Source of the DNA: Candidatus Electronema aureum
GTDB lineage: Bacteria > Desulfobacterota > Desulfobulbia > Desulfobulbales > Desulfobulbaceae
Assembly (NCBI GenBank): GCA_004284765.1
Contig: NQJD01000032.1
Coordinates: 1 to 28,062 of the forward strand
Length of the DNA stretch: 28,062 bases
Direction: 5' to 3'
Positions 1,348-28,062 of the stretch are shown one piece after another. A program made the translations under genes and the position numbers. A model generated the notes under the pieces. That model saw only the letters and a list, made by a program, of their open reading frames with translations. It was not told the DNA's origin and ran no database searches. Every line of letters starts with the position of its first letter. Positions within the stretch are counted from its first letter, which is position 1.

Positions 1348-1353
1348 AATTCT

Positions 1354-1992: not shown

Positions 1993-1999
1993 AACATTT

Positions 2000-2758: not shown

Positions 2759-2772
2759 GACATTCTCCTAAT

Positions 2773-3834: not shown

Positions 3835-3879
3835 TCCCCCTCCAGCAATACCTTAAATTTTTTTTGGCAATAAAGAGCA

Positions 3880-4110
3880 TCAAATTATATTATCACCTAT
3901 CAATGCGACAAGATCATCTACAGATTTTGCATCTGCAATTTTTTTCGGAGACAATGTGATTCCAAGGCTTTCATCAATCATTGCAATAAAAGAAACGATA
4001 GCCAAGGAATCCCATCCAGGAATCGATTCAATAGTTTCATTACCAGTTATTGTACCTGGTTCAGCTTCTACAACACCTTCAAGTAAAACAATAAACTCTT
4101 GCTTATTCAT
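3880..4110 (-). CDS. Acyl carrier protein (stand-alone, polysaccharide-cluster type)
   Basis: 76 aa, acidic. Contains the phosphopantetheine attachment motif [10 protein letters not shown] (DSL). Its ATG overlaps the stop of the upstream gene by 4 nt (ATGA coupling at 4107-4110). Confidence 0.75.
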
Positions 4111-5953: not shown

Positions 5954-5955
5954 GT

Positions 5956-7092: not shown

Positions 7093-7093
7093 C

Positions 7094-8200: not shown

Positions 8201-8201
8201 T

Positions 8202-9230: not shown

Positions 9231-9235
9231 AAAAA

Positions 9236-10399: not shown

Positions 10400-10410
10400 T
10401 TTACGCAACG

Positions 10411-11649
10411 TTAAGAAATAAATTCAAAAAATCTTTCAACCTGTTTTAGAGCATTTTTTTTAGTTAAAATAAATTCTCTTGCAGATAAAGCAAGAGCCTT
10501 CCGCTCAGAACAAGGAATATTAAAAACTCTAACGATTGCATTTTTAATGGTTTCTCCGCATGCTGTATTTACAGTATAGCAATATCGATAATATTCTTCT
10601 GGTATACCATCAAGTCGATACATCAATGTCGGAGTTCCAGATGCTAAATACTCCATGGTTTTAGATGGAAAAGAATATTTATTAAATTCTCCGACATTAC
10701 TTCTGGGATTTATTAACAAATCAACTTTTTTTTGTAAAACGAGTATATTATCCATAGATAATATACCAAGATATTTTATTTTAGAATTAAAATTACACAT
10801 TGATTTTATATAGTTAACAGATGCCCCTCCCCCGCATATCCATAATTCAATTTCAGAATCATGAATTTCATTAAAATCATCAACTAATTTTTTCACACCG
10901 TATCGCTCGTCTACTGTTCCACAATACATCAAAATTTTTTTACTATCGAAATAACAACTTGAATTCTCAGGAAAATAAAGATGTACCTGTTCGGTAGATG
11001 CTTCTCTGTGTTGATATATCCCTTCAATTACAATACATTTATTTTTACAAATATCAAGAATAGATTGCATTTGCTCTGTGAGAATAACAAAAAAATCCAT
11101 CTTCTTTAAAAGAAATTTAATAATCTTTTTTTCAAAAAAAGAAATATAAAATTTATAGAAATAATTACAATCTCCAGGGAAATCTGGAAGATCTGTGATT
11201 ATAACACAGCGTTTTATCTTTTTGTTTTTATAACCACAAAACACAGAAGATGCTACATATGCCACGTTCAACGAATACGAAATTAAAATATATTCATCAT
11301 GATTTTCTACTAATTCTTTATTTAACGTTTTTCTTATATTTATAAATTTATTTATATTCTTAATTAAAGGAAAATTAAGATAACTTATTCCTTTAATTTT
11401 TAAAGGAAAATCCTGAATTTTTTTTTTAATATAGCTTAATTTGTGATTAATTGGCCAGCTACCAAAAAATGGAGCGGTCACAATAAGAATATCCGATTCA
11501 AGGACTGCTTTTAAACCTGAAATAAATGCCTGCTGAAATCTTTCTGCGGCATATTGTGGAGGTGACATAGAAAAATTATGTTCCACACCATATAGAGAAT
11601 ATGGTGTTATTCCGCATATAAAAATAACTTTTTTAGTTTTCATCGGCAT
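10411..11649 (-). CDS. Glycosyltransferase, GT-B fold (GT4-like), very AT-rich
   Basis: C-terminal LINPRSNVGEFNKYSFPSKTMEYLASGTPTLMY resembles the GT4 EX7E region. The likely ATG is at 11649 (MPMKTKKVIFICG) or 11643, and the track ORF begins at a TTG at 11694. A hand count of 11281-11340 gives 9 G+C of 60. Confidence 0.65.
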   Translation of the reverse strand: MPMKTKKVIFICGITPYSLYGVEHNFSMSPPQYAAERFQQAFISGLKAVLESDILIVTAPFFGSWPINHKLSYIKKKIQDFPLKIKGISYLNFPLIKNINKFINIRKTLNKELVENHDEYILISYSLNVAYVASSVFCGYKNKKIKRCVIITDLPDFPGDCNYFYKFYISFFEKKIIKFLLKKMDFFVILTEQMQSILDICKNKCIVIEGIYQHREASTEQVHLYFPENSSCYFDSKKILMYCGTVDERYGVKKLVDDFNEIHDSEIELWICGGGASVNYIKSMCNFNSKIKYLGILSMDNILVLQKKVDLLINPRSNVGEFNKYSFPSKTMEYLASGTPTLMYRLDGIPEEYYRYCYTVNTACGETIKNAIVRVFNIPCSERKALALSAREFILTKKNALKQVERFFEFIS

Positions 11650-11722
11650 TAGGCAGAGAAATAAAGGCAATGAAATTGTTGTCCGAAATTTCAAACAAAC
11701 AACTCCGTTACTTACGGTAGAA

Positions 11723-12691
11723 TTATTTATTTTTTATTTCATAAATAATACTATAATTATTCTTTGATGTTGCATGCCTTTTTTTGAAGAAAAACCAAAA
11801 AAAACGATTTCCAAAAATACTAAAAATAAAAATTAACCATTTATTTTTATTTTGTAAATCATATACAAGAGCTAACCATTTAAAATATATACTACCGGCA
11901 TATGTAACAGATGAACGGCCATGAGAAGCATACAATGATGAAATAAAAAAATTTCTAAAATGCAAGATATCGGTTTCTTTTTCTATAAAAGAACCCCATT
12001 TTTCTATTATTATATCTAAGCTATATATTCTTTTTTTCAAATTCATACTCGTTCGAGCATGACAATGATGTCGCATAATAGAGAGACCTAAATTTAGGCC
12101 CACAAATGGCCCAAGCATTGATAACTTAATCCACATGTCATAATCTTGAAAACTCATTAATTTTTCATCAAACATCCCCGCTGCGATAGCCTTTTCTTTT
12201 TTAACAACAACTAATGAAGTGGATTCAGGGCATAATCCTCGGAAAAAATCAATCGGTAGCATAATCTCTTTTATTTTTACCTTATCAGCTAAAAAATCAA
12301 AATCTTCGTAATATCCATATTGAGAACAATATACAGCAACAGCATTTGGTGTTTTGTTAAAGGCTTCCATTTGAAGCTCTAATTTATTTGGTAGCCAGAC
12401 ATCATCATCATCTAAAAAAGCTATGTAATTATACTTAGCACTCAAAATGCCAGAATTTCTTGCGCCGCATCCCCCTTTATTTCTAAAATTTTTAATAGCA
12501 TCAACGCCTTCAGATAGACATATTTTTTTTACTTCCTCTGATAAAACTGGATCAGAATTGTCATCGATAACTAATATTTCTATATTTCTATATGTTTGTT
12601 TTTTTGCAGACTCTATTGCTTTTTTTAAATAATTATTTCTGTTAAATGTTGCGATGATAACGCTAACAAATTCAAATGCTATTTCTTTCAT
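11723..12691 (-). CDS. Glycosyltransferase family 2
   Basis: VSVIIATFNRNNYLKKAIESAKKQTYRNIEILVIDDNSD and the DxD-type FLDDDDVWLPNKL. ATG at 12691 (MKEIAFEF) overlaps the end of the preceding gene by 20 nt. Confidence 0.8.
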   Translation of the reverse strand: MKEIAFEFVSVIIATFNRNNYLKKAIESAKKQTYRNIEILVIDDNSDPVLSEEVKKICLSEGVDAIKNFRNKGGCGARNSGILSAKYNYIAFLDDDDVWLPNKLELQMEAFNKTPNAVAVYCSQYGYYEDFDFLADKVKIKEIMLPIDFFRGLCPESTSLVVVKKEKAIAAGMFDEKLMSFQDYDMWIKLSMLGPFVGLNLGLSIMRHHCHARTSMNLKKRIYSLDIIIEKWGSFIEKETDILHFRNFFISSLYASHGRSSVTYAGSIYFKWLALVYDLQNKNKWLIFIFSIFGNRFFWFFFKKRHATSKNNYSIIYEIKNK

Positions 12692-13838
12692 TATTAACAA
12701 TAAGTAGTATATAGTATAAATAAATCAACTTGACGAATCCTGTACTTACATTTAATACAGGACCTTTAAAATTTGAGATGAAAATTACACCAAACAAGAT
12801 AAAAGAAATTACAAAACCACTTGCTTTCCATAATCTACGAAACATATATATGTTTAAGCATGACAATAAAAACAAATACAATAATCCACCGAAAAAAATT
12901 TGATTGATATATCCAATATCAGATCGCATTCCTGCATTATTCCAAATATCAATACCTTCACCAAATAAGCAGCCAGAAACAGTCTCAGGATAAAAAAACA
13001 TATCATTAATTAACGTATTGTATGTCGTGTTTTCATTATAATTATGAAAGAAATCTACGGATTCTGTAAAAAAACTAGCTGCCCACTTTAATGTCTCATT
13101 AGATGCTGACATATTCTTTACAAGAAACAAACATAAGGCTATTAATATAGCTACCCGGAAAATTTTTCCGGAATTATGCTTGTATTGCAATACGATGATG
13201 GAGGAAATACCAAAAAAAAGTATAATAAAACCAATTCTTGCGTTGATAGCTATGGATATTATTAATAATATAGAAGATATGTAAAAAAAACGTTTTTGAT
13301 TATACAATAACGAAATTATTACAATAATAGCATTTGTAATTGAATATGAAAACGTAGAACCTTCAGCAATGGAAAAACTTCTTATTCCAGAAGCCGACAA
13401 GGGATCGTGAATCAATGTAGATTTAACATAGAAATTAACATCTGGAACAACAAACAATATAAAACTTATAGTTGCAGCAACTATACTAGTTAAATAAATA
13501 AATGATATTACTTTTTTGGTATCAAACCCTACAATAATATGTAATATGTAATATGGAACAATAAAACATTCAATAATAAAAACAATATTTATATAAATAT
13601 ATCTTAAAGACAGGTCGATATTGCGCGGCATAAGCAGCACACAATAAAATATCGTAAGAAAAACAAAAAAAAATTCTATATGTAGAAGCTTTACAAAAGC
13701 AGCATTATTTTTTTTTGAAAAGAGATGAAATAATGCTGGTAGCCAAAAAAATTTTGTAAGCCCAAAGTTTACTACCTGAAATATTGGATTATATATATAT
13801 ATATATAATAACACTATTGTAACAATTCTAAAAATCAT
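12672..13838 (-). CDS. wzy: Polytopic membrane protein, putative O-antigen/capsule repeat-unit polymerase (Wzy-like)
   Basis: 388 aa. It consists almost entirely of hydrophobic segments (roughly 10 by eye) with one longer loop, is extremely AT-rich, and sits between wzx and the GT genes. Assignment is by topology and context only, because Wzy proteins lack strong motifs. Confidence 0.55.
   Translation of the reverse strand: MIFRIVTIVLLYIYIYNPIFQVVNFGLTKFFWLPALFHLFSKKNNAAFVKLLHIEFFFVFLTIFYCVLLMPRNIDLSLRYIYINIVFIIECFIVPYYILHIIVGFDTKKVISFIYLTSIVAATISFILFVVPDVNFYVKSTLIHDPLSASGIRSFSIAEGSTFSYSITNAIIVIISLLYNQKRFFYISSILLIISIAINARIGFIILFFGISSIIVLQYKHNSGKIFRVAILIALCLFLVKNMSASNETLKWAASFFTESVDFFHNYNENTTYNTLINDMFFYPETVSGCLFGEGIDIWNNAGMRSDIGYINQIFFGGLLYLFLLSCLNIYMFRRLWKASGFVISFILFGVIFISNFKGPVLNVSTGFVKLIYLYYILLIVNNERNSI
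13790..13807. repeat. (TA)9 dinucleotide microsatellite inside codons 11-16 of the putative wzy
   Basis: Direct count: t13790 to a13807 is tatatatatatatatata, encoding L-Y-I-Y-I-Y on the minus strand. Confidence 0.9.
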
Positions 13839-13920
13839 TTTTACTCTATTTAGGCGAATAATTTTTCAAAAATAAAAAGTATTTTATATGCTTAACAAAC
13901 ACTCGATGTTAAGACCTTCC

Positions 13921-14530
13921 TTAGTCTCCTCCCCAAGCAAGCCTCAACATCGCATTTACCCAATCCCGATTAACTTTACAGCTTATTCCCCAATAAAGTG
14001 GCGCAGCCAATGCAATACCTACAGTTAAACGAAGTGGAGAACTTTCAATGTGACTTGATAAAAAATAAGCTGAAGCAACAGCCACACCAGCAATCAGCAT
14101 TGGCTTGAGCGCAGCAGAAGAATATTCAAGCAGACTTGCATGACAAAGCGGTCGTACCAAGATATACCATCCGGGGATGAACATAACGAATGACAAACCA
14201 AGCAATGCCCAAGCCAAACCTTCCGCTCCGAATCGAGAACCTGTCCAAAGAGCTGGGGGGACAATAAAAATCATTGCAAAATTCCATTTCATCGCTAAAC
14301 TTGCCCGCCCCATCCCCATCAGCAGGCTGCCTACTGGATTGCCTGCTGATCGCAAAAACCCCCAGACGGCCAAAATGCGCAGTAAGTCAACAGAACCTGT
14401 CCACTTACTGCCGAACAGCATATATACCACCTCTGGAGCAAAAAAAGCAAGACCCGCATACAGAGGTGCGTTAGTGGATGCTGTCATGTTCAACGTGTTG
14501 AGATAGATCAGGCGTACACGCTGGATATCT
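13921..14530 (-). pseudogene. Relic of a MOP-superfamily polysaccharide flippase (Wzx/RfbX-like): C-terminal ~200 codons only
   Basis: The 190-aa track ORF starts at a TTG, and the frame stays open 12 more codons upstream to a TAA at 14530-14532 (DIQRVRLIYLNTLNMTAS...). Content such as LYAGLAFFAPEVVYMLFGSKW, then RSAGNPVGSLLMGMGRA and four more TM segments, looks like the last third of a Polysacc_synt_C-type flippase. There is no N-terminal ~250 aa and no RBS. G+C is visibly higher than in both neighbours (32 of 60 at 14281-14340). Confidence 0.6.
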
Positions 14531-14579
14531 TAGACAGTAAGCGGGAAAACAAATTACGCGAAACGCTGTATATTTTCAT

Positions 14580-15203
14580 TTATTTTTTACTAAACACAAA
14601 AAAACGATGATAAGGATTTTCCCATACCCGATAAGTTTTAATCAGGCAGATATGTTGTGAAAAATCGGCAATCACTCGCGAAAGGGGGTAATCTCTCTTG
14701 TTGATTTCCCAATAGTGTTCGCCATCAAATTTATGAACACATGTGCATAGCTGGGGCCGCGGAATAAAAAAATTATATGCGCCAAATTTTGGCAGATGAA
14801 TCCGATAGTACCAAACGTTTTTTGCATCAGGCAGGCTAATTATCACGTGATGGCGACTAACACGTACCATCTCGATGAATGCTTGTAGCGATACCTCATA
14901 CGGCAAATGTTCAAGTATCTGAAAAGCGCAGACAACATCATAAAAAGCATGGGGAAAATGCATATTGGTAGCTGAACCAACATGATCTGGTTTAAGGTCA
15001 GGATCAATATCTAATGTTTCTATTTTGAAACCGAACGTCTGGAGAGCGGCCTTTAAAAGACCTGATCCGAGTCCAATTTCAAGCACATTCTCTGGCTTCA
15101 CTCTCTGAATTTCATCAACCTGATGCCAAATACTGCCCCAGCGATTCTTAGTCATATAACGATTGAATTCATAATGTGTTTTTTCAACTTGTTTTTTATT
15201 CAT
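14580..15203 (-). CDS. Class I SAM-dependent methyltransferase
   Basis: 207 aa. Motif I is VLEIGLGSGLL, with an acidic post-I residue in TLDID and motif-II-like YDVVCAFQILEHL. The ATG overlaps the wzx stop by 8 nt. Confidence 0.8.
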   Translation of the reverse strand: MNKKQVEKTHYEFNRYMTKNRWGSIWHQVDEIQRVKPENVLEIGLGSGLLKAALQTFGFKIETLDIDPDLKPDHVGSATNMHFPHAFYDVVCAFQILEHLPYEVSLQAFIEMVRVSRHHVIISLPDAKNVWYYRIHLPKFGAYNFFIPRPQLCTCVHKFDGEHYWEINKRDYPLSRVIADFSQHICLIKTYRVWENPYHRFFVFSKK

Positions 15204-16527
15204 TTTTTGAGTATACTTTTATATTTTTTCCGCTATGAAATATGACCCAAGAAATCAGCCACGCATAAGCAATGACACCAAGTATAGAAAACAGGGCAAT
15301 AGCCGTCACATCGCTTCCAAATACTGCATAACCGATATAAAGAGCCAAAATTTTCGTTCCAGTACTGAATATTTCGTATATAAGAAGTCCACCCTGAAGC
15401 TGTAGTGGAGCAATAGCAGTCACGGCAGGTTTATTAATATATTGAAAAAAAAGCCAGACACCCAACCATTGTCCATAAATTCCAGCCGTCTTCCATTCGG
15501 AACCAAATATAAAAGCAAACAACGATGGTCCAGCAAAAATTATAACAGCAAATGGAAGTACACCGATCAATGCCAATCCAAGAGTCGCTTTGATGATTAA
15601 CGATTTCACATCTTCTCCACGAAAAATTGCCTCATTAATACGTGGATAGAAAACCTGAGAAACTGACCCACCAATCAAGTTTATTGGCATCGCTAAAACA
15701 GACAAGGTGAGAGTGTAGTGCCCGACTGCTGTTGCCCCAAAAAAAGTGGCCAGTAGCATCACAGGAAGACTCTGCGAAATTGCATTCAACAGAACCTGTG
15801 GTGCTCGATAAAGAAGGAAATCGCTGTGCCGCTTGGCAAGACACCACGCATTCGACGGAAGCAGTTCATTTTTTGGGGTATCTATAGGCACTTTATGGAA
15901 ATTCAGCATAGCTATCAATACGTTAACCATGCCGCTCAATATATTTGTTATAATTAACACTATAGCCGAAGGATAGACAATTCCTACGCATGTCTTGATT
16001 ATGCTTACGAGCGAAGCCTGAAAAATAGCGACCTTAGCTGTTAAAGAAAAGAATTTTTTTCGTATAAACCACTGATTTGATATTACACTAGCAGTAGAAA
16101 TAAGCATAAATACAGGGACAAAATATATGTAGTTAGAAATATTTTGAGAATCTAAAAGATATAGGATTTCAGATTTAAAATAAAATATAATAAAAAAAGT
16201 GATCCCTGAGGTAAGTATGGAAATATAAAATGATAGGCGTACTATAGCAAGCGCATCTGCATCGTGTTTTGGTAAAACAATCGCTGTCGGATAAGTCATT
16301 GCAGCAATTGTTGCCATTGTGTTGGCAATAGACATAAATATACCTTGAACACCATAAGCATTAGCACCATAGATTCTTGCAATTAATGGCGAAAAAAATA
16401 TTGTAATGATCTGTGCTATTGCTGTACCGCTAGTAATTAAAATAATATTATGAATAAACGGACGTTTTAAAAAATGGAACGACCACTTTTTGAAACTATA
16501 ATAATTTTTGTAAGGGTTAATTGACAA
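15196..16527 (-). CDS. wzx: Oligosaccharide-unit flippase, MOP superfamily (Wzx)
   Basis: 443 aa with about 12 hydrophobic segments. N-terminus ...NIILITSGTAIAQIITIFFSPLIARIYGANAYGVQG is typical of Polysacc_synt flippases. TTG start at 16527 with GAGG 8 nt upstream; there is no in-frame ATG nearby and a stop lies 3 codons upstream. Confidence 0.8.
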   Translation of the reverse strand: MSINPYKNYYSFKKWSFHFLKRPFIHNIILITSGTAIAQIITIFFSPLIARIYGANAYGVQGIFMSIANTMATIAAMTYPTAIVLPKHDADALAIVRLSFYISILTSGITFFIIFYFKSEILYLLDSQNISNYIYFVPVFMLISTASVISNQWFIRKKFFSLTAKVAIFQASLVSIIKTCVGIVYPSAIVLIITNILSGMVNVLIAMLNFHKVPIDTPKNELLPSNAWCLAKRHSDFLLYRAPQVLLNAISQSLPVMLLATFFGATAVGHYTLTLSVLAMPINLIGGSVSQVFYPRINEAIFRGEDVKSLIIKATLGLALIGVLPFAVIIFAGPSLFAFIFGSEWKTAGIYGQWLGVWLFFQYINKPAVTAIAPLQLQGGLLIYEIFSTGTKILALYIGYAVFGSDVTAIALFSILGVIAYAWLISWVIFHSGKNIKVYSKNE

Positions 16528-20267: not shown

Positions 20268-21224
20268 ATGAATGTATTCTTAACTGGAGACATCGGCGGC
20301 ACCAACAGCAGGTTTGCCTGTTTTCAGCAGGAAGGCAACAAGCTTCTGCTGGAAAGCGCGATAGCGGTCAAGACAAATGATTTTGCTTCCTTCGAGGAAC
20401 TGCTGAACGCGCTGAAAGAAAACGGCAGCCAATTTGACGTGCAGCAGCACCGTAAATTTGTCCTCGCCATTCCAGGTCCTGTAACTCCGGCAGATGTGCT
20501 CTCTTTCCCCAATATAAAATGGGCCATCAGCAAATCCAGCCTGAAGAAGCTCTATCCTGACACAGAAATTTTCTTCATCAACGATTTCAGTGCGCAAGCC
20601 TATGGCTGCCTCACCGAGGCGGTGGCTGATGCGCTGCCGTTAATCAAAACAGAACAGACGCGGGATGATATTGCCATCGTTGGTGCCGGCACAGGACTTG
20701 GCCATGGCACACTGAAAAAAACAGCACAAAGCGGCTATCTGCATCTTCCTTCTGAAGCCGGGCAAATTCCTTTCCCTTTTGCAAACGATGAATTTGAGCA
20801 GAAATACCGAACATTCATCATTCAGCAAATAGGCATAGCCACTCTCGTTGGCGACGATGTCGTTTCTGGCAGAGGTCTTGCCATTCTGCACCAATTCATC
20901 ACCGGAAAATTGCTGTCTCCCAGCGAGATAGCCGCAGAACTTGATGCCACATCTGAAACAACGCAGTGGTTCGCCAAATTTTACGCCAGAGTTTGCCGGA
21001 ATTATGTCCTCAGCACCTTGGCAGGCGGTGGCAAGCTATTTATCTCCGGCGGTGTGGCGATTAAGAATCCTTTCTTATTGGATAACAATGCCTTCAGAAA
21101 TGAATTTCTGCAAGGCTCAGACACAGCGCAGGACGTGCTGGCCCATATCGCAGTTTCGCTGATCCACGATGAGCGAATCGGGCTGTTTGGCACGGCTTAT
21201 TACGCATCAAAACTAGTATGTTAG
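20268..21224 (+). CDS. glk: Glucokinase
   Basis: 318 aa. LTGDIGGTNSRFA (phosphate-1 motif), FINDFSAQA, IVGAGTGLGHG, SEAGQIPF, VSGRGL and LFISGGVA are colinear with Glk-family (ROK-unrelated) glucokinases. Confidence 0.9.
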   Translation: MNVFLTGDIGGTNSRFACFQQEGNKLLLESAIAVKTNDFASFEELLNALKENGSQFDVQQHRKFVLAIPGPVTPADVLSFPNIKWAISKSSLKKLYPDTEIFFINDFSAQAYGCLTEAVADALPLIKTEQTRDDIAIVGAGTGLGHGTLKKTAQSGYLHLPSEAGQIPFPFANDEFEQKYRTFIIQQIGIATLVGDDVVSGRGLAILHQFITGKLLSPSEIAAELDATSETTQWFAKFYARVCRNYVLSTLAGGGKLFISGGVAIKNPFLLDNNAFRNEFLQGSDTAQDVLAHIAVSLIHDERIGLFGTAYYASKLVC

Positions 21225-21257: not shown

Positions 21258-21284
21258 AGGGTGAATTCAAGTTCCAAGTGCAAC
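21258..21284. repeat. IS30-relic terminal inverted repeat (transposase 3' end)
   Basis: gggtgaattcaagttccaagtgcaacc matches the reverse complement of 22031-22057 (gggtgaattcaacttgtaagtgcaact) at 23 of 27 positions, counted by hand. Confidence 0.7.
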
Positions 21285-21955
21285 CGTTAAGTAGTCTCGC
21301 CAAAATAGCTCTTTTGGTGTTTTAAATCCAAGAGATTTTCGAGGCCTGTTGTTGAGCTTTTCCATAATAGCTTTGACATCCTGTGTGTCCAGCGTGTCAA
21401 AGCTCGCTCCTTTTGGGAGGTATTGCCGTATAAGTCCGTTCGTATTTTCGTTAAGCCCGGCGTTGCCAAGCCTGATACGGATGCGCGAAGAAGCAGTCTG
21501 CCTGAAGCGTGCTTGCGAACTCCTGATGCAAGGCAAATTCCTTGCCGTTGTCGCAGGTTAGGGTATGAACTTGGTCTTGGCAGGGAAGAAGGGCTTGGAC
21601 AAGTGCCTGATTGACGCTATTTGCCCGTTTATTCGGGGAAAAAGCGATAACTCGCGTCTTCCGTTCAGCCAAGGTGACAAAAACAGCTCCTCCCCGACGA
21701 CCGATCACCGTATCTATCTCCCAATCACCAATCCGAGAACGTTCTTCAACGATGCTGGGGCGATGATCTATCGAGACCCGGTTTTTATTTAATCTTGCCC
21801 CGGTCGGTCAGTGCTGCCATAACCTGCAATTCTCGACCGATAGTTGATCTGTGTCGGCCAAGCTGCAAGGCTATCGCTGATTTCTGATGCCCTGCTTGCT
21901 TTAAGGCGTAAATTTGGTTACGCTCTGCTTCGGTGAGTTGTGTGTAGTTTTTCAT
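21267..21955 (-). pseudogene. IS30-family DDE transposase, disrupted
   Basis: Piece 1 (hand-translated from ATG 21955): MKNYTQLTEAERNQIYALKQAGHQKSAIALQLGRHRSTIGREL, then QVMAALTDRGKIK and a stop at 21785. Only the HTH is present, and roughly 100 aa expected after it are missing. Piece 2: NRVSIDHRPSIVEERSRIGDWEIDTVIG...TCDNGKEF...HPYQAWQRR, carrying two catalytic D residues. Piece 3 follows a 1-nt frameshift near 21470: GLNENTNGLIRQYLPKG...LNNRPRKSLGFKTPKELF, carrying the catalytic E. Confidence 0.8.
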
Positions 21956-22058: not shown

Positions 22059-23393
22059 CTATTGCGCTTGCGCAAAAAGGGGATTTGTTTTGACCGCCGA
22101 GTGAACAATTTCGAGGAGGATGGCTTTTTCTTTTGCGCCTGGCTGAATTCCAGCTTCGGCATACATCTTTGCAATTTGAACCAGTTGGTTAGATTGCCAT
22201 CTCCAAGAAGAATCTCCACTTACTTTTGCCATGCCGTCTCTTACTATCCCAATAAATTTAGCCAACAAGCGGGCTGCGTCCTCCTTCTGTCCTGTTTTGA
22301 CTGCAATACGTGCCAATAAAGGAATTTTTTCAGAATCATCAAGAATTTTGTCAATTATTTCTTTTGCTTGATCAAAAAATCCAGCCTCAGCGTAGTGGGT
22401 TGCAATTCCCATTAATGACAAATTATACGACCTATCGTTATACGACGGATCATTTCTTCTTTTTTCATCAATCAGTTCATATGACTTTGAAAACATTTCA
22501 AGAGATTTTTCTTTTTGACCAGACTTGGCATACCCGTCCGCAACCAAAAGCAACACTCGTGCTCTGACTGCCGGTTCTTTAATATGAGCAGCTATGTCAA
22601 TTGCTTGCAGGCGAATTTCAGCCGCATTATTTTCTTTCTTTTCAATTTCATTGGCAACTGTCGCTAATGCTAAACTTTTCCATAAGGGTTCATCAATTTT
22701 ATTTGCAATATCAATTGCTCGGCTGATGTTTCCGCATATCGCATATCCGATTGAAATTGATTGCAAAACTGAGTCATTCTTATTATCATTTTCTTGTTTA
22801 AGAAGTTGAGAAAGCAGTCTTTCTCCTTTTTCTTTCTGACCAATCTTTGCATAGCTAATTGCAACATGAGAGAACATTGACAACTCAAAGCCATTCCCTT
22901 TGATCGTTTTTTCCAATTGCTCCAACAATGCTGTCGCCTTCTCGTTTTTTCCTGCTTCAGCATGGTTTTCTGCAATTGCAATCAACGCAACAGTCAGCGC
23001 AACAGCCTTGTCATGAGTATTTCCTTCCATTGCTTCAGCAACGACAAACGCAGCCTCCAGCGGCGACTGCTCCGCCTCGGCAAGCAGCTTCACCGCCTCT
23101 TCCTTCTCTTGAAACTGCCGCAGTGTCAAACCAAGTATCTTGGTCTGGCCGGACAGCAATCCGACCGCAACAGTGGAAGCAGGATAATCTGTCAATATCG
23201 CATCAATTGTCTTTCTGGCATCCTGATACGCTGCATAGTCTGCCGAGAAATCTTTTTCCTTCCGCTGCTGTGCACTCTGAAGAAGCTGCGATGCCTCCAC
23301 ATACAGCTTGTTTGCCTTCTCATTCGGGTCAGCAGAGCACCCGCCGCAAACCAGCACCAAGACAAGCATCAGCCAGATCAAACGCGCTTTCAT
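22059..23393 (-). CDS. Secreted or lipid-anchored repeat protein (TPR/HEAT-like helical repeats), unknown function
   Basis: Start at ATG 23393: MKARLIWLMLVLVLVCGGCSADP, a signal peptide with a Cys-containing cleavage region. At least 8 degenerate ~35-40-aa repeats follow, of the form hydrophobic-IA..YA.AGQKEKA..LL (AENHAEAGKNEKATALL, SYAKIGQKEKGERLL, DGYAKSGQKEKSLEMF, THYAEAGFFDQAKEII, IAVKTGQKEDAARLL, KMYAEAGIQPGAKEKA). Confidence 0.7.
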   Translation of the reverse strand: MKARLIWLMLVLVLVCGGCSADPNEKANKLYVEASQLLQSAQQRKEKDFSADYAAYQDARKTIDAILTDYPASTVAVGLLSGQTKILGLTLRQFQEKEEAVKLLAEAEQSPLEAAFVVAEAMEGNTHDKAVALTVALIAIAENHAEAGKNEKATALLEQLEKTIKGNGFELSMFSHVAISYAKIGQKEKGERLLSQLLKQENDNKNDSVLQSISIGYAICGNISRAIDIANKIDEPLWKSLALATVANEIEKKENNAAEIRLQAIDIAAHIKEPAVRARVLLLVADGYAKSGQKEKSLEMFSKSYELIDEKRRNDPSYNDRSYNLSLMGIATHYAEAGFFDQAKEIIDKILDDSEKIPLLARIAVKTGQKEDAARLLAKFIGIVRDGMAKVSGDSSWRWQSNQLVQIAKMYAEAGIQPGAKEKAILLEIVHSAVKTNPLFAQAQ

Positions 23394-23503
23394 TTTTCGT
23401 TTCCTTGTTATTTTCCCAGTTATAACGATTGTAAACAAAACATATCCTGTTTTGCATAGAGACGCAAAGGCAGGAACAACGGCGACCTGCCCTTGCCCCC
23501 TTT

Positions 23504-26500
23504 CTACAACGGCAAAATATGCACTTCCTCCCTCGTCGGGTGCATCCCGCGCAGGAAGAGACCGCTGCGTCCGTCAATGGAGACCGGGTCGCCGAAGCTG
23601 ATGCGGAAGCCGTTGATCATCGCGTGCGCACTGGCCTCGAAGACCTGCAAATCACGGCAGCCGACCACGCAGGTCTTCTCCAATCTGGTCGCCACCACTG
23701 AGGCGTGCGAAGTCTGGCCGCCGCGCGCGGTCAGCAGGCCGTCAGACATGGAGATTTCCCGAATGTCCTCTGGCACGGTGTCCTGCCGGATGAGGATCAG
23801 CGGCACATTCGGCTGCTCGCTGCGGAGCTGGCGGATGTTCTCGTCAGTAAACACCGCCAGCCCGGAAAGCGCGGAGCCGCTCACGCCGATGCCTTTACCG
23901 AGCAGCGCGGCCTGCTGCGCCTCAGTCTCCTCAAAGACCCGGAAGTGCTCCTTCTTCTTGATGGTGATCATGTCGCGGGTCTGGAGGATGTACAAATCCT
24001 CCGGCTCCGGCCCTTCAAAGGTGAACTCAATCTCCTGCGGGTTCCACTCCTTCGTATAGACCAGATCGCGGGCGATGCTGAGAAGCCGCTCATAGATCTT
24101 GGGGAAACGCCGCTCCAAGGTCTGCTCGGCGGAACGTCCATCCAATTCCGCCTGCTCGACCGAGATCGGGTAGCTGGTGACAAGGCCGGAAACAATGTCC
24201 TCGCCTTGGTCGCTGGAGGCGTAATCGCCCCAGAGCGCGACCCGCCGCACCTTGCGGTAGGGATGGGCGGTGAAGAGCACGCCGCTGCCCGCCTGCTGGC
24301 TGCGGTTGCCATAGACCATCGCCTGTACGGTCACTGCTGTGCCCCAGTCGTCAGAGACATCCATCAGATGGCGGTACTGACGGGCCTTGTGGGTGTTCCA
24401 CGACTCCAGCACCATTTCCACCGCGCCGATGAGCTGAAGCCACGGGTCTTCCGGCGCATTGCATCCATGCCGCCGCAGGGCGTTGCGGTACTCCAAGGCC
24501 AGCTCGCGCATCTGCACCGGCGAGAACTCCCGCTTCAGGCGGACATTGTAGCGTTTCTTGTGCGCGTTCATCATGCTGCCGAATTCCTCGCGGCCCATGC
24601 CGGTGCCCATCGCCCACGATTGCAGGAAGCGGCGGTAGTTGTCCCAGAGAAAATACTTCTGCTCCGGGTGATGGGCTACCAGCTCCTCCAGCAGGTCTTC
24701 ATTCAAACCAACGTTGTGAATAGTGGCCATCATGCCGGGCATGGAGATCGCCGAGCCGGAGCGCACTGAGAGCAGGAGCGGCGTGTCCGGCGAGCCGAAG
24801 CTGCGGCCTGTCTGCTCCTCAATGCCGGTGATCGCCGCCCGCAGCCGCTGCATGAACTCCTCTTTGGCCTTGGTGAAACGCTGCACCGCAGGCCAGCAGC
24901 GGAAGATCTCGGTGGTGATGATGAAGGCAGGCGGCACCGGCTTGCCGTCATTGGCCAAGAGCATAAGGTTGAAGCCCTTGTTGCCGAGATGAATGAGGTT
25001 GTGGGTGCGAAGGTTCTCGTTGTGGAGCGAGGAGATGGTAGTCTCCGGGTTGTAAGTCATGAGCAGGTCAATGGTCTGCTCGTCAAGAATGTCGCGCTGG
25101 GCCTCCAAGGTCTGGATGATCCGGGTGATGAAGTTGTCAAGATGCTGTAGACCGAAGGTGGTGGCGATGAGATCACGGAAGAACGACTCGGACAACCGGT
25201 GGATGGTTGACGGCATGTCCTCGTCATCCCAGAGCGGGCGGAACTTGGTCAGCAGATTCTCTCTGCCGATCTGCGGGATAATGATCGAGAGGTTGTTCTG
25301 ATGCACATTGGTGTAGTGTGCATAGATCACGTCTTTGACCCCTTCCGACAGCCCGCGCACGATGTCTAAATGCTGGGTGTAGGTGAATCGCTTCATGCTG
25401 ATCGAAGCGTCCAGCAGGCTGGTGTAGGTGTCCAGGCGGCGGCTGGTGATGCCGTCAATCTTCAAAGCACGGATGTAGAAGCTCAAGGCTTGAGCAATGC
25501 GGATGAAGGTCGCCTGGGTGATGAAGCCAAGGTTGATGGAGAGATTCAGCCGCTCAAGGTAGATGTTGGCAAGGGTCTCCAAGCGGAAGGCGAGGCCGAG
25601 CGCGTCGAACTTGCGCTCGGAATAGCGGCCATAAACTGAGGGAATGTCCACCGCGATATGGCGCTTGTAGTATATCTCTTCCTTCGGCTCAAATTTTTTA
25701 TCGCTGAGGATAACCTGCTTGAGCTGCTCCAAGTGGGTGAGCAAAGCATCCAAGCAGCTGCACGTGTCGCCGTTTTCGAGCACCATCAGCAGCTCCTCCA
25801 TCTCCGGGAAGCCGTTCTGGGCCGCGTGCTGGAGCTGACAGCGCAGCTCCTCCATGCCAAGGCTATACTTGTGATGCAGCAAACGGTGCATCCGCACGAG
25901 CAGATCAAAGCGTTTGCGCTCGCCAGCGGAGAGGTCGGTCTGCCGCTCCAGCCAGGCTTTGCGCTCAGCCTCGTCCCAGGTCAGCAGCTCATCCACATTG
26001 CTGTATTCCATCTCATCACGGACGCGCCGGGCAAGAATGTGCAGCTCGTCCACAAAGGGGCCGGAGGTCTGCACTTGGCCCAGTATCTCCTCTGGCAGAT
26101 ACGGTTTAAGGCCGTTCTTGTCCAAGGTGAGCCAGAAAACAAAGATCGCCCGGATGAAGCCGACAATCAAATTCGAGGATTCGACATGCGACTGCTTGCG
26201 GAGGAAATGGATGAGCACGTCATGCCGCTTGTGCAGCTCGTCTAATTCAGTGGAGACATCGCGCAGCTCGCCCTCTGCGCCGATCTCGTTGAAGAAGACC
26301 GGCATCAGCTTGGTGAACTGCTTGGCGAGATTGTAAATCGGCTTGATCGGGTGATTGAGCAGCTGGGTGATGTCGCGCTGGAAGAGATCCGTGTCTTTGA
26401 CGCAGGTGCCAGTCAGGCGGATGTTGATGATCAGGGCAGAGAAAAGCGTTGAGCACCATTTCGGCTCCTGCATGATCAGATTCAGCCAGACCCGGATGTT

Positions 26501-27751
26501 GGCCAAATGCGCCGGGTTGGTGATCGGCTGCCAGTCTTCGTCCACGCCCATGACATTGGCATATTGAAAGCCGAAGCGCACGGTCTCAAAGAGGAAGGCT
26601 TCCACTAAACGCGAATTGCCGCGCTGGAAGACCTCGCCGCCAATGACTTGGATGCACTGGAGCGATGTGTGCGGGTATTTGCGCACATTCGCCTTGAGGA
26701 GATGAAAGGTGGTGGTGAAGAACTGCTCGATCTCGTCAAAGCTCTGGCGGCGGATGAGCTGGACAAGCGAGCGGTTGATCTCGCGCAGGGTCTCCTCATG
26801 AATGAGCGAGAGACCGGCGGTGTCCATGATGCGGAAGAGGAAGAAGAGCTTGCGGTTCTCGATCATGGTCGGATCCGTCTCGCCGCCTTCCTCGCCCAGT
26901 TTGGCCGGGATTTCCCGATAGAGCCGGACCACATCAATATGCGCGGGCAGCTCCAGCATCTCGCTCAGGGCCTGGTACGGGTCTTCCTCAATATTGATCA
27001 GCTCCAAGGCGGCAAGATGCTCGCGCATCCGGGCGTGCGAAATGGCGGCTAACTGCGGCCCGGCCTGCCAGTCCCCGCAGAAGGTGCCGCACTGCGACTC
27101 AAACCAAGGCTGCGGGTCTTCCTCCTTCAGCCAGCAGGCGTAGTTGAGGCTGAGGACTTTCCGCAGCAATTTGGCCGCCGCCGCGCAGGAATAGTTCTGC
27201 TCCCCGGCCTTGCGCCCTAAATTGGTGAGCTGCTCGGCCATTTTCTTCAGCGGATGATGGCCTTGCACCATCTGCATCATCACCCCGCTGTCCATCTCGT
27301 CCAAGCGGACAAGCTGCTCGAAGAAGGCATTGAGCGCGCCGCCGTAACGCGGCAGCGTCTGCGGCGTGAGCGAGCTGATCAGCTTGTCGGCATAAGCAAG
27401 CAGGGCCTCGACGGTCTGCGCGACGACCTTGCTGTTCTTGCGCGAGTCCTTGAGCGCGTCAAGGAAGATTGAGCTGAACAGTGCGAAGCAGTCCGGCCCC
27501 TGCTCATGGCTGAGGTAGTGGCTGATGTTCTTGAGGACAAAGGGCCGCAGCTCGCTGATGATGAGCTGCCAGTTGCGGTAGGGGTGGCTGATCTCGTACA
27601 GCAGGTGCTCAAGCCGCGAGGCAAGCCCCTGATAGCGGGCCACCACCTCCTGAAGCGGCCTCCAGCGCGGGGAGATTTCAACAGTGCTGGCGGTTTGCTG
27701 GAAGTTGGCTTCAAGAGCTTTGGAGATGATGGGCGGCGGCTGGGTGGGCAT
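23504..27751 (-). CDS. Giant dikinase-like protein: unrecognised ~910-aa N-terminal region, then a PPDK/PEP-synthase-type ATP-grasp nucleotide-binding domain and a phosphohistidine swivel domain; no PEP/pyruvate TIM-barrel domain
   Basis: ATG 27751 is preceded by GAGGAAATC; the track ORF starts 10 codons earlier at a TTG. The last ~495 aa are colinear with the first two-thirds of pyruvate phosphate dikinase: LGNKGFNLMLLANDGKPVPPAFIITTE, LLLSVRSGSAISMPGMMATIHNVGLN, WDNYRRFLQSW, GTAVTVQAMVYGN, GSGVLFTAHP, DQGEDIVSGLVT, LYILQTRD, ILIRQDTVPEDI, and GLLTARGGQTSHASVVATR with its His codon at 23705-23707. The ORF stops 66 aa after that His. Confidence 0.85.
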   Translation of the reverse strand: MPTQPPPIISKALEANFQQTASTVEISPRWRPLQEVVARYQGLASRLEHLLYEISHPYRNWQLIISELRPFVLKNISHYLSHEQGPDCFALFSSIFLDALKDSRKNSKVVAQTVEALLAYADKLISSLTPQTLPRYGGALNAFFEQLVRLDEMDSGVMMQMVQGHHPLKKMAEQLTNLGRKAGEQNYSCAAAAKLLRKVLSLNYACWLKEEDPQPWFESQCGTFCGDWQAGPQLAAISHARMREHLAALELINIEEDPYQALSEMLELPAHIDVVRLYREIPAKLGEEGGETDPTMIENRKLFFLFRIMDTAGLSLIHEETLREINRSLVQLIRRQSFDEIEQFFTTTFHLLKANVRKYPHTSLQCIQVIGGEVFQRGNSRLVEAFLFETVRFGFQYANVMGVDEDWQPITNPAHLANIRVWLNLIMQEPKWCSTLFSALIINIRLTGTCVKDTDLFQRDITQLLNHPIKPIYNLAKQFTKLMPVFFNEIGAEGELRDVSTELDELHKRHDVLIHFLRKQSHVESSNLIVGFIRAIFVFWLTLDKNGLKPYLPEEILGQVQTSGPFVDELHILARRVRDEMEYSNVDELLTWDEAERKAWLERQTDLSAGERKRFDLLVRMHRLLHHKYSLGMEELRCQLQHAAQNGFPEMEELLMVLENGDTCSCLDALLTHLEQLKQVILSDKKFEPKEEIYYKRHIAVDIPSVYGRYSERKFDALGLAFRLETLANIYLERLNLSINLGFITQATFIRIAQALSFYIRALKIDGITSRRLDTYTSLLDASISMKRFTYTQHLDIVRGLSEGVKDVIYAHYTNVHQNNLSIIIPQIGRENLLTKFRPLWDDEDMPSTIHRLSESFFRDLIATTFGLQHLDNFITRIIQTLEAQRDILDEQTIDLLMTYNPETTISSLHNENLRTHNLIHLGNKGFNLMLLANDGKPVPPAFIITTEIFRCWPAVQRFTKAKEEFMQRLRAAITGIEEQTGRSFGSPDTPLLLSVRSGSAISMPGMMATIHNVGLNEDLLEELVAHHPEQKYFLWDNYRRFLQSWAMGTGMGREEFGSMMNAHKKRYNVRLKREFSPVQMRELALEYRNALRRHGCNAPEDPWLQLIGAVEMVLESWNTHKARQYRHLMDVSDDWGTAVTVQAMVYGNRSQQAGSGVLFTAHPYRKVRRVALWGDYASSDQGEDIVSGLVTSYPISVEQAELDGRSAEQTLERRFPKIYERLLSIARDLVYTKEWNPQEIEFTFEGPEPEDLYILQTRDMITIKKKEHFRVFEETEAQQAALLGKGIGVSGSALSGLAVFTDENIRQLRSEQPNVPLILIRQDTVPEDIREISMSDGLLTARGGQTSHASVVATRLEKTCVVGCRDLQVFEASAHAMINGFRISFGDPVSIDGRSGLFLRGMHPTREEVHILPL

Positions 27752-27961
27752 GATTTCCTCGTTTCGTAATGGCAGCAGCAAGATGGCGGCGTTCTCTCAA
27801 CCTTGGCGGTTCTCTTTGTAATCCAGCCAGAATAATAACCCTGCCAAGGCGACTAAGGCAACATGAAGCCGCATTCTCATTCATGTGGCACATAAAATTT
27901 GATGATTTTCTCTGAACACTGTGCTATGTTAAGAGCTCACCTTACGCACCCAGATGGCGTA

Positions 27962-28062
27962 AGATACCTGCATGACAAAAAAGAACCTGCTTGATTTATA
28001 CAGCGAGTATCTCATTAGTTCCTTCGGTCAAACGACGGCGACCGGTCTTTCAGCATTGTTGA
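27962..28062 (+). CDS. Transposase, N-terminal 33 codons (gene continues beyond the right edge); IS4/IS701-like by N-terminal motif
   Basis: ATG 27962 gives MTKKNLLDLYSEYLISSFGQTTATGLSALL..., open to the window end. The motif LLD.YS.YLISSFG.TTATGLS.LL is one I recall from the N-termini of a widespread DDE transposase group. The fragment is short, there is no clear RBS, and the family is assigned from memory only. Confidence 0.5.

Follow-up and report, generated by a model that had tools for sequence, protein, structure and literature searches.

The locus examined here raises the question of what a protein with the catalytic modules of pyruvate phosphate dikinase (PPDK) phosphorylates when the domain that binds PEP and pyruvate is missing. 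The window, a stretch of 28,062 nucleotides from the cable bacterium Candidatus Electronema aureum, carries a complete ORF of 1415 aa plus stop (23504..27751, minus strand), whose product consists of an all-alpha N-terminal domain, a PPDK-type ATP-grasp domain and a phospho-histidine swivel domain, in this order. The ribosome-binding site GAGGAA (27755..27760, minus strand), read from the sequence, lies 3 nt 5' of the ATG at 27751, in agreement with the good RBS noted in the preliminary description. The alternative start TTG at 27781, which would add 10 aa, is disfavoured by the database protein P0001, which is 99% identical and likewise 1415 aa long. Among the database relatives, the architecture recurs at 1412–1444 aa in hundreds of independent assemblies. 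The long ORF, whose continuity had been marked for checking, is thereby reproduced across independent genomes, and the dikinase gene is therefore genuine and not an artefact of assembly or fusion.

The gene downstream of the dikinase (22059-23438, minus strand) gave weak TPR matches, in line with the TPR-like product described before. It is followed by an IS30-like remnant (21267-21955) and a glucokinase gene (20268-21224). On the other side, a plus-strand ORF that starts at 27972 and runs off the window has an N-terminus that may be transposase-like.

The C-terminal part of the protein is a PPDK module with intact motifs. Pfam matches were obtained to PPDK_N (E = 6.5e-28) and PEP-utilizers (E = 6.1e-16), and a phmmer search against PDB sequences aligned aa 918–1408 with residues 16–513 of Clostridium symbiosum PPDK (E = 4e-71). 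The ATP-grasp (nucleotide-binding) domain covers aa 918–1260 (23972..25000, minus strand) with conserved K925, R997, E1240/E1242, Q1257 and R1259; in the alignment, K22, R92, E323, Q335 and R337 of PPDK correspond to K925, R997, E1242, Q1257 and R1259. The swivel (PEP-utilizers mobile) domain, placed by Pfam and the PPDK alignment, covers aa 1285–1400 (23552..23899, minus strand). The PPDK alignment and the relatives identify the catalytic histidine as His1349 (codon 23705..23707, minus strand) within GGQTSHA, 66 residues from the C-terminal end. The ATP-grasp residues are invariant or nearly so across 27–72 diverse relatives, and the TSH motif is conserved too, which speaks against degenerate catalytic motifs. 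PEP-utilizers_C was not found in the 1415-aa protein by the Pfam search, and the PPDK alignment ends at the start of the linker to the TIM barrel; the PEP/pyruvate TIM barrel is absent. The assignment of the last ~495 aa, the position of the histidine codon and the loss of the barrel, all first read by eye, were thus confirmed. Among NCBIfam models, the protein scored 347 bits with TIGR01828 (PPDK), far under the curated cut-off of 843, 67.5 with the PEP synthase (PEPS) model (cut-off 740) and 289 with NF004531 (VadK-type; cut-off 456).

The N-terminal domain (aa 1–915; 25007..27751, minus strand) is presumed to bind the acceptor or a partner. Profile searches of this region gave no match in Pfam, NCBIfam, PADLOC or PDB sequences. 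The confident AF2 model (pLDDT 85.8, pTM 0.73) shows an all-alpha domain with a single beta-hairpin, and the core of aa 340–915 was modelled separately (pLDDT 86.5, pTM 0.78). No PDB fold match to these models was found by Foldseek (best E-values 1.5e-3 and 0.16, TM-scores ≤0.2), the only structural neighbours being insignificant alpha-solenoid scaffolds. The helix-rich character of the ~910 aa and the lack of a placeable motif, both stated in the preliminary description, therefore hold by sequence and by fold, and the searches that it proposed for this region led to no characterised family. All 28 residues that do not vary between phyla fall in the conserved core (aa 340–915; 25007..26734, minus strand): F395, H415, D453, D455, L456, L465, P484, G491, E493, G494, R497, D504, D511, R518, K519, H522, K628, Y629, E691, K696, H698, S705, Y707, G708, R723, G767, R859 and D872. 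No cysteine is among them. As 18 of the 28 are Asp, Glu, Arg, Lys or His, the pattern is more what one expects of a catalytic or acceptor site than of a passive scaffold. The sole beta-hairpin (aa 690–711; 25619..25684, minus strand), with the motif E-x-I-Y-x-K-R-H-I-A-x-x-I-P-S-x-Y-G-x-Y, contains the invariant E691, K696, H698, S705, Y707 and G708 and is a candidate element of the acceptor site.

With the N-terminal domain alone as query, 589 clusters at 50% identity were retrieved, and the domain is present in at least 566 species genomes. The family includes members in Desulfobulbales, Nitrospirota, Thermodesulfovibrio, Actinomycetota, Thermoleophilia/Miltoncostaeaceae, Bacteroidales, Myxococcota and Magnetococcus, among others. 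The relatives are named PPDK, PEP synthase or "PEP/pyruvate-binding domain protein" in the databases, as anticipated from the belief that only domain-level annotations exist. In some members, a hemerythrin sensor domain is fused to the N-terminus, and this variant has no gap neighbour.

The survey of co-occurring genes, suggested earlier together with that of the spread, yielded a new finding, namely that glyceraldehyde-3-phosphate dehydrogenase (GAPDH) genes are the genomic partner of this family. A GAPDH gene adjoins the dikinase in eight of nine loci outside Desulfobulbales. In seven of these (L085, L086, L087, L089, L090, L092, L093), the dikinase is immediately followed, on its own strand and at a distance of −4 to 108 nt, by the gene of a distinct "long" GAPDH of 401–420 aa; in L091, a canonical gap gene is adjacent and divergent. 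In Desulfobulbales, gap lies directly upstream on the same strand within 1.5 kb in 49 of 74 evaluable loci; a glgA-like gene and aroC are also seen upstream there. Outside this order, an aldehyde dehydrogenase gene directly precedes the dikinase in L090. GAPDH is the only neighbour shared across phyla, the others being lineage-specific. A reciprocal test in metagenomes found the dikinase directly upstream in 10/10 evaluable long-GAPDH loci (17/17 overall), while canonical gap loci had the dikinase in 0/63 and pgk directly downstream in 45/63. The gene order in L086 is dikinase, long gap, gap, pgk, tpi, with one kinase-type gene beside each dehydrogenase. Since at least two loci with the module (L086, L095) also have pgk, the dikinase is no simple replacement of phosphoglycerate kinase (PGK). 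The long GAPDH has four conserved family-specific insertions. Its GAPDH active site is complete, with Cys149, His176, Thr179, Arg195, Arg231 and the STGAA loop all retained, so that it probably still handles the 3-phospho acyl-phosphate/aldehyde pair. In the clade of Desulfobulbus, Electrothrix and Electronema, no gap occurs within 10 kb of the dikinase; the cable-bacterium clade, with the window, has lost the linkage. The argument from GAPDH thus reaches the gene in the window through orthology, members with a long GAPDH partner being 27–45% identical to its product. The earlier remark that the acceptor cannot be read from the neighbours stands for the window itself; it does not hold for the relatives, whose GAPDH linkage hints at the acceptor. 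The position of relatives directly next to GAPDH genes in many phyla suggests that central sugar metabolism includes an enzyme step not yet described.

With its motifs intact, its N-terminal domain matchless and its reading frame genuine, the protein fits the proposal of a dikinase whose acceptor is set by the large N-terminal region. It is quite probable that this dikinase-type enzyme is functionally tied to GAPDH and triose-phosphate metabolism. Our best reading of the whole is a tentative one: a His-phosphocarrier dikinase that works with GAPDH, the conversion of 3-phosphoglycerate (3-PG) to 1,3-bisphosphoglycerate (1,3-BPG) being favoured. The ATP-grasp domain would bind ATP and pyrophosphorylate His1349 with release of AMP; the beta-phosphoryl would stay on the histidine, and the gamma-phosphoryl would go to Pi or water. 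The His domain, on its single linker, would swing to a second site, located in the conserved core of the all-alpha domain and not in a TIM barrel. The metabolite acted upon there is proposed to be one made or consumed by GAPDH because orthologues in at least six phyla form a two-gene unit with GAPDH, usually the long form. In the favoured reaction, the carboxylate of 3-PG would be phosphorylated to 1,3-BPG, with ATP converted to AMP and either Pi or PPi; reduction of 1,3-BPG to glyceraldehyde 3-phosphate (GAP) would fall to the partner GAPDH. Such an enzyme would serve gluconeogenesis as a strongly driven counterpart of PGK; a reverse, AMP/PPi-using route making ATP is also conceivable. The specific pair 3-PG/1,3-BPG is rather doubtful. 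We know of no carboxylate acceptor in the dikinase superfamily, whose characterised acceptors are all hydroxyl or enolate oxygens (pyruvate, glucan, rifampin, phenol), and this counts against 3-PG.

The adjacency of gap also counts against the favoured reading, as it would be expected equally of an ordinary gluconeogenic PEP synthase. So do the pgk genes of L086 and L095 and the missing gap neighbour in the window's clade and in the hemerythrin-fused variant. The protein might be a true PEP synthase or PPDK with a non-homologous all-alpha domain instead of the TIM barrel as its pyruvate/PEP site, gap being simply a clustered, co-regulated gene. Its C-terminal module is indeed nearest to bona fide PPDK (TIGR01828 and the PDB match), the family has gap, pgk and tpi as neighbours and is present in organisms that depend on gluconeogenesis (autotrophs or acetate users), and a canonical PPDK/PEPS gene was seen in no fetched locus, which says little at ~20 kb read per genome. 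PPDK, however, uses a Cys as proton donor, whereas the N-terminal domain has no invariant Cys and no likeness to any PEP- or pyruvate-binding fold. PEP-utilizers_C is undetectable, the PPDK and PEPS scores fall far under their cut-offs, and the one-to-one pairing with long GAPDH is tighter than co-regulation demands, all of which makes this enzyme unlikely. To our knowledge, the known relatives all phosphorylate hydroxyl- or enol-type O-nucleophiles, which would suit a dikinase for another three-carbon hydroxyl acceptor feeding the partner dehydrogenase (glyceraldehyde to GAP, glycerate to 2- or 3-PG, dihydroxyacetone to DHAP) or for a phospho-sugar acid such as 4-phosphoerythronate. The GAPDH linkage, the aldehyde dehydrogenase gene in L090, the glgA-like gene and aroC in Desulfobulbales and the glucokinase gene in the window are consistent with it. 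These extra neighbours are lineage-specific, however, GAPDH alone being common across phyla, and nothing indicates that these organisms metabolise free glyceraldehyde or glycerate; such an acceptor is also improbable.

We infer that the phosphoryl group is passed to a small molecule. A protein-directed role is also possible, because VadK (Rv1127c) of M. tuberculosis, a TIM-less PPDK derivative of ATP-grasp and His domain only, seems to be a kinase that regulates partner enzymes: it binds methylcitrate-cycle enzymes, and its autophosphorylation on His422 was shown experimentally (PMC13400623). Similarly, the ATP-grasp domain could charge His1349 while the helical domain docks the GAPDH tetramer or other enzymes, and triose-phosphate flux could be tuned by whether the protein is phosphorylated or by transfer of the phosphoryl group to the partner. 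The alpha-solenoid neighbours of the N-terminal domain, the long-GAPDH insertions as potential docking surfaces and the hemerythrin sensor domain of some members would agree with this. The solenoid matches are insignificant, however, the NF004531 score is under its cut-off, and the 18 invariant residues that are charged or His, distributed across many elements of secondary structure, are more typical of a site for a small molecule and a metal than of a protein interface. A regulatory kinase is thus distinctly unlikely, and the His-phosphocarrier dikinase working with GAPDH is preferred.

Compared with PPDK (EC 2.7.9.1; C. symbiosum 1KBL), the cable-bacterium protein shares the ATP-grasp and the swivel domain with its T-S-H motif, central in PPDK, and conserves all key ATP-site residues. 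It differs in lacking the C-terminal TIM barrel, in the unrelated 915-aa all-alpha domain that precedes the ATP-grasp and in its His domain, which forms the very C-terminal end and is attached by one tether. VadK likewise derives from PPDK by loss of the barrel, with the ATP-grasp and phospho-His domains retained, but it has ~490 aa without an extra domain and is tied to the methylcitrate cycle, whereas the cable-bacterium family has the conserved N-terminal fusion and is tied to GAPDH. A common logic of ATP-grasp, phospho-histidine and family-specific acceptor domain is followed by PigC/RedH/HapC, phenylphosphate synthase, hydroxyphenylethanone kinase and glucan-water dikinase. Rifampin phosphotransferase (RPH) also combines an ATP-grasp, a swivelling phospho-His domain, C-terminal as here, and its own acceptor domain in place of the TIM barrel (PMC4844700). 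As in RPH and the PEP-synthase-like dikinases (PRK06241 group), a third, family-specific domain replaces the barrel; unlike theirs, it precedes the ATP-grasp, is three times as large and shows no sequence relationship. NCBIfam matches to these groups reach 21–35 bits against cut-offs of 866–1350 and cover the ATP-grasp only, and Pfam detected no CBM or RIF-binding domain in the 1415-aa protein. The gap-pgk operon, finally, also places the gene of a phosphoryl-transfer enzyme beside that of a phosphorylating GAPDH. The dikinase has no sequence or fold relationship to PGK, and its chemistry, if analogous, would be AMP-forming via a phospho-His intermediate; we propose that the dikinase/long-gap pair may be a functional analogue of gap-pgk.

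The gene at 23504-27751 on the minus strand gives an unbroken translation of 1415 residues (the dikinase), with a ribosome-binding site, GAGGAA, ahead of the ATG at 27751. A protein of Candidatus Electronema sp. JC (P0001) is of equal length and 99% identical to it, which assigns the window to a freshwater cable bacterium of the Desulfobulbaceae. Pfam matched PPDK_N (PF01326) at aa 963-1204 (E = 6.5e-28) and the PEP-utilizers mobile domain (PF00391) at aa 1318-1397 (E = 6.1e-16). In a phmmer search of PDB sequences, aa 918-1408 aligned with residues 16-513 of the pyruvate, phosphate dikinase (PPDK) of Clostridium symbiosum (1KBL; E = 4e-71), and the aligned stretch spans the ATP-grasp and swivel domains and stops where the TIM-barrel linker starts. 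The PPDK residues K22, R92, E323, Q335 and R337 correspond to K925, R997, E1242, Q1257 and R1259, and alignments of 27-72 diverse homologues showed little or no variation at these positions. Alignment to PPDK placed the codon of the catalytic His1349, within GGQTSHA, at 23705-23707 (minus strand), precisely as the preliminary description had stated, and the protein ends 66 aa past this residue. The absence of a PEP/pyruvate TIM barrel, claimed in the same description, was also borne out, as Pfam gave no PEP-utilizers_C match (PF02896) in the dikinase. A permuted or hidden PEP/pyruvate domain was ruled out because there was neither a PF02896 match nor a PDB sequence match, and the N-terminal models contained no barrel. 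At the residue level, the phosphotransfer parts are shown to be intact, and one C-terminal tether holds the His swivel domain.

The N-terminal region of ~910 aa had been described as free of placeable motifs, and our searches agreed with this. Pfam did not match aa 1-915 (the N-domain) in the dikinase and eight relatives at 27-47% identity (E ≤ 1), NCBIfam and PADLOC gave no match, and a profile run against the full set of PDB sequences reached a best E-value of only 0.06. The AlphaFold2 model of aa 1-915, built on a 67-sequence alignment (mean pLDDT 85.8, pTM 0.73), is all helix save one beta-hairpin at aa 690-711, and a second model covered the conserved core, aa 340-915 (pLDDT 86.5, pTM 0.78). 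Likeness to the PEP carboxylase, terpene-synthase, DhaL and (alpha/alpha)6-barrel folds, which were considered as candidates, was absent from the Foldseek PDB hits of both models. Among the 67 sequences, which come from several phyla, 28 N-domain residues were invariant, and 18 of them are Asp, Glu, Arg, Lys or His. The invariant residues group in the motifs D453-T-D455-L-F-Q-R-D, N-E-I-G491-A-E493-G494-x-L-R497-D-V-S-T-x-x-D504, D511-x(6)-R518-K519-Q-x-H522 and E691-x-I-Y-x-K696-R-H698-I-A-x-x-I-P-S705-x-Y707-G708. Judged from this alignment, the conservation pattern is of the active-site type.

When the N-domain was used as a query, a word-indexed search retrieved 953 proteins, and the best 120 of these were all from Desulfobulbaceae, with 1412-1444 aa and 65-99% identity. 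An exhaustive search of 1.84 billion representatives found 589 clusters (50% identity), 206 of them below 1e-30, and full-length members of 1350-1540 aa down to ~27% identity. When one genome of each GTDB species was scanned, the family turned up in at least 566 genomes. Named members belong to Magnetococcus marinus MC-1, Thermodesulfovibrio, Bacteroidales, Miltoncostaeaceae/Thermoleophilia, Myxococcota and Desulfobacterota, and a partial sequence was found in Dehalococcoidia. The recurrence of the same architecture in hundreds of assemblies confirms that the long ORF is continuous and rules out an assembly or fusion artefact. The relatives are named "pyruvate phosphate dikinase", "phosphoenolpyruvate synthase", "PEP-utilizing enzyme", "PEP/pyruvate-binding domain-containing protein" or "hypothetical protein" in the databases, so the earlier guess that they carry merely domain-level labels was correct.

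The immediate neighbours in the window say little about function. Downstream of the dikinase gene lies a gene for a weakly TPR-like protein (22059-23438, minus strand), followed by a fragmented IS30-like transposase (21267-21955, minus strand), whose HTH_38 and rve pieces lie in separate reading frames. This remnant sits between the TPR-like gene and a glucokinase gene (20268-21224), two genes from the dikinase, and is probably a decayed insertion sequence. On the other side, a divergent ORF starting MTKKNLLDLYSEYLISSFGQTTATGLSALL (27972-28062, plus strand) continues past the window end; Pfam gave no match on its 30 residues, and its N-terminus may resemble IS4/IS701-type transposases. In the closest MAG locus (L005) this place is taken by a gene with a TIR domain, and the locus carries a 309-bp duplicate of the dikinase 5' end (window 27447-27754) ~1.5 kb upstream of its own copy. 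It shares 94% nucleotide identity with the window across the dikinase gene and is collinear with it over 23415-27774 only, which indicates that both flanks are rearranged. Farther away, a long cluster at 322-16527 (minus strand; scanned from 11723 onward) includes glycosyltransferase, methyltransferase and polysaccharide-export (Polysacc_synt) genes and is probably a surface-polysaccharide locus. Membership in a defence system was ruled out, since PADLOC had no hits for the dikinase gene or its downstream neighbour.

Genomic context of the relatives provided new information, namely a linkage to glyceraldehyde-3-phosphate dehydrogenase (GAPDH). We collected 80 Desulfobulbales species loci, 74 of which had enough upstream sequence for evaluation. 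In 49 of the 74, the same strand carried a canonical 334-aa GAPDH gene (gap) no more than 1.5 kb upstream, usually at less than 400 bp. The gap gene was not found in the window, nor within 10 kb in the Electronema, Electrothrix and Desulfobulbus loci; the cable-bacterium dikinase is a family member that has lost the gap linkage, and for this reason the function proposed for the gene in the window is inferred from its orthologues. Outside Desulfobulbales, nine loci (L085-L093) were sampled, and a GAPDH-family gene adjoined the dikinase gene in eight. Seven of these carry a 401-420-aa GAPDH (the long GAPDH) directly downstream on the same strand, with -4 to 108 nt between the two genes: Magnetococcus L085 (14399-15634), L086 (12342-13589) and L087 (12198-13451), Thermodesulfovibrio L089 (10106-11332) and L090 (10114-11319), Miltoncostaeaceae L092 (10209-11447) and Thermoleophilia L093 (10216-11478). 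In the Bacteroidales locus (L091) a canonical gap is divergently adjacent, and L088 is the sole locus of the nine with no GAPDH neighbour.

As a reciprocal test, JGI metagenome contigs were searched with the long-GAPDH alignment, and the dikinase was then sought in the returned loci. The search yielded 17 loci with a long GAPDH at 48-61% identity (L094-L110), and the dikinase was directly upstream in all ten that had at least 1 kb of upstream sequence (L094, L097-L105). The same scan returned 63 canonical gap loci; none had the dikinase, and pgk was directly downstream of gap in 45. Taking genomes (7) and metagenomes (10) together, the long GAPDH adjoins the dikinase in 17/17 evaluable loci. 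We define this pair as a two-gene module; the dikinase of the window, with no GAPDH-family gene next to it on its strand, falls outside the module. The two GAPDH types flank the dikinase in L103 (canonical gap upstream, long gap downstream), and L086 has the order dikinase, long gap, gap, pgk, tpi. No second PPDK-like gene was observed in the fetched loci (~20 kb per genome).

Across phyla, identity among the long GAPDHs is 50-57%, as against only ~32-37% to canonical GAPDH. Cys149, His176, Thr179, Arg195, Arg231 and the S-T-G-A-A loop are retained, the catalytic Cys, the His and the anion-site residues all being intact. Four conserved insertions (~12, 8, 9 and 30 residues), which contain an invariant E-T-H-T-R-T, were found in no solved structure. 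The NAD-specifying dinucleotide-binding motif N-D-L is replaced by G-R-E/D-V-G with loss of its Asp. In Rossmann folds such a replacement is generally read as a sign of NADP(H), and this suggests that the long GAPDH uses NADP(H).

Several other genes accompany the dikinase in single lineages. In Desulfobulbales, gap is often preceded by a glgA-like glycogen synthase gene and aroC, which stand before gap and the dikinase in L022 (7028-8884) and 42 other loci; the glgA-like protein has ~570-620 aa with a long low-complexity N-terminal extension and scores below the GlgA cut-off. Both genes were set aside as family partners, being upstream in Desulfobulbales only. Likewise, a ~200-aa His_Phos_1 (phosphoglycerate-mutase-like) gene directly upstream in Electrothrix (L004:9323-9919, L007:9247-9921, L008:2-487), whose product could be a phosphoglycerate-related enzyme or a phospho-His phosphatase, was set aside because it occurs there only. 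An HMA-domain heavy-metal P-type ATPase gene lies just downstream in several Desulfobulbaceae (L001:14511-17480, L002:14339-17284, L020:16778-19912) and a few kb downstream in the actinobacterial L092 (14714-16212), and an ArsR/ArsP/thioredoxin cluster lies upstream in L093. This proximity may be coincidental, and the ATPase (L001-L003 and ~8 other loci) was set aside as lineage-specific. In one lineage (L090), an aldehyde dehydrogenase gene (Aldedh, 531 aa; 4403-5998) stops 3 nt short of the dikinase start, so that the operon order is Aldedh, dikinase, long GAPDH. The L088 protein (8001-12623; P0287/P0160, 1540 aa) carries an N-terminal hemerythrin domain, and this fusion suggests that O2, redox or iron sensing is coupled to the dikinase.

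The cycle of PPDK-type enzymes, with histidine as the phosphocarrier, is textbook enzymology. In PPDK, PEP synthase, rifampin phosphotransferase, glucan-water dikinase and phenylphosphate synthase, ATP pyrophosphorylates the histidine and AMP is released, while the gamma-phosphate passes to Pi or water and the His-bound beta-phosphate to a family-specific third domain (PMC4844700, PMC5371819). By analogy, the dikinase is predicted to autophosphorylate its histidine from the ATP beta-phosphate, release AMP and transfer the phosphate to an acceptor. The third domain would be the N-terminal alpha domain, and the acceptor would be a metabolite in common with GAPDH. We consider it likely that this is a dikinase-type enzyme functionally tied to GAPDH and triose-phosphate metabolism. 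The reaction that we favour would convert 3-phosphoglycerate (3-PG) to 1,3-bisphosphoglycerate (1,3-BPG) via phospho-histidine, with ATP/AMP and Pi or PPi. It is favoured because the position of the dikinase relative to the long GAPDH mirrors that of pgk relative to canonical gap, because the partner GAPDH keeps the substrate-phosphate and inorganic-phosphate sites, and because a kinase with an acyl-phosphate reductase is a recurrent metabolic design, as in PGK-GAPDH, aspartokinase-ASA dehydrogenase and glutamate kinase with its reductase. The AMP-forming step would also strongly favour the gluconeogenic direction. Run in reverse with AMP and PPi, the reaction would conserve extra energy, like PPDK in PPi-dependent glycolysis.

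This particular acceptor pair is only a tentative assignment, and the dikinase and GAPDH forming an unrecognised reaction pair, a "3-phosphoglycerate dikinase" bypassing PGK in lower glycolysis/gluconeogenesis, is a similarly doubtful proposal. To our knowledge, carboxylate phosphorylation is known for no superfamily member, which counts against the 3-PG reading, as does the presence of PGK alongside the dikinase in L086 and L095. That the enzyme is a dikinase with a different three-carbon hydroxyl compound as acceptor, such as glyceraldehyde, glycerate or dihydroxyacetone, or with a phospho-sugar acid in this role, seems unlikely to us. The PPDK-like C-terminal module would also suit a genuine PEP synthase/PPDK that binds pyruvate at a non-homologous site and whose gene stands beside gap in a gluconeogenic cluster; this reading leaves the one-to-one pairing with a specialised GAPDH unexplained, the dikinase has no PEP-binding signature, and we regard it as improbable. 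A regulatory kinase whose helical N-domain docks GAPDH would resemble VadK (Rv1127c) of M. tuberculosis, the nearest precedent for His autophosphorylation. VadK is derived from PPDK, lacks the TIM barrel, autophosphorylates on His422 and also binds enzymes of the methylcitrate cycle (PMC13400623). The hemerythrin-fused variants fit such a sensory role, but the dense invariant charged residues of the N-domain speak for catalysis, and a regulatory function appears quite improbable.

In at least six phyla and hundreds of genomes, a PPDK/PEP synthase label is attached to a protein with no pyruvate/PEP-binding domain, and metabolic reconstructions relying on this label may be wrong because that domain is absent. 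Cable bacteria, sulfate reducers, Thermodesulfovibrio and magnetotactic cocci are among those concerned. Since it is paired almost obligately with a distinct GAPDH subfamily, an enzyme whose fold has no known counterpart stands beside the best-studied biochemical pathway. If 3-PG/1,3-BPG is the acceptor pair, it would mean a new AMP/PPi energy-coupling option for lower glycolysis/gluconeogenesis in anaerobes. With a "3-phosphoglycerate dikinase", the PEP-utilising enzyme superfamily would gain its first member that forms an acyl phosphate; this enzyme would have an acceptor domain of new fold and might channel the labile intermediate into its dedicated long GAPDH. If the role is instead regulatory, the VadK principle, itself a recent description, would apply to GAPDH as well. 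VadK excepted, the literature that we searched had nothing relevant on a phosphoglycerate dikinase, the long GAPDH, or the family and its accessions.

The dikinase has the ATP-grasp and phospho-His domains of the His-phosphocarrier dikinase superfamily in one polypeptide with intact catalytic residues, and by sequence-level criteria it qualifies as a member. It has the ATP-grasp residues and the G-G-x-T-S-H-A histidine in common with PPDK (TIGR01828, EC 2.7.9.1) but is missing the C-terminal TIM barrel (PF02896), and its score of 346.9 bits is far below the NCBIfam equivalog cut-off of 843.45. For PEP synthase/pyruvate, water dikinase (TIGR01418) the score was 67.5 bits against a cut-off of 739.75, the TIM barrel again being absent from the dikinase. 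The VadK type (NF004531) has two domains in ~490-530 aa, whereas the dikinase scored 289.3 bits against a cut-off of 456 and has an extra 915-aa domain. The match to rifampin phosphotransferase (NF041857) was limited to residues 1109-1202 (26.8 bits versus 999), and the RIF-binding domain that this enzyme has between the ATP-grasp and His domains is not found in the dikinase. The N-terminal CBM45/CBM20 modules of glucan-water dikinase were not found by Pfam (E ≤ 1) in the dikinase or 8 diverse members; CBMs are beta-sandwiches, whereas the N-domain model is all-alpha. Compared with these systems, the family combines a known phosphotransfer engine with an acceptor domain and a conserved GAPDH partnership that are both undescribed.
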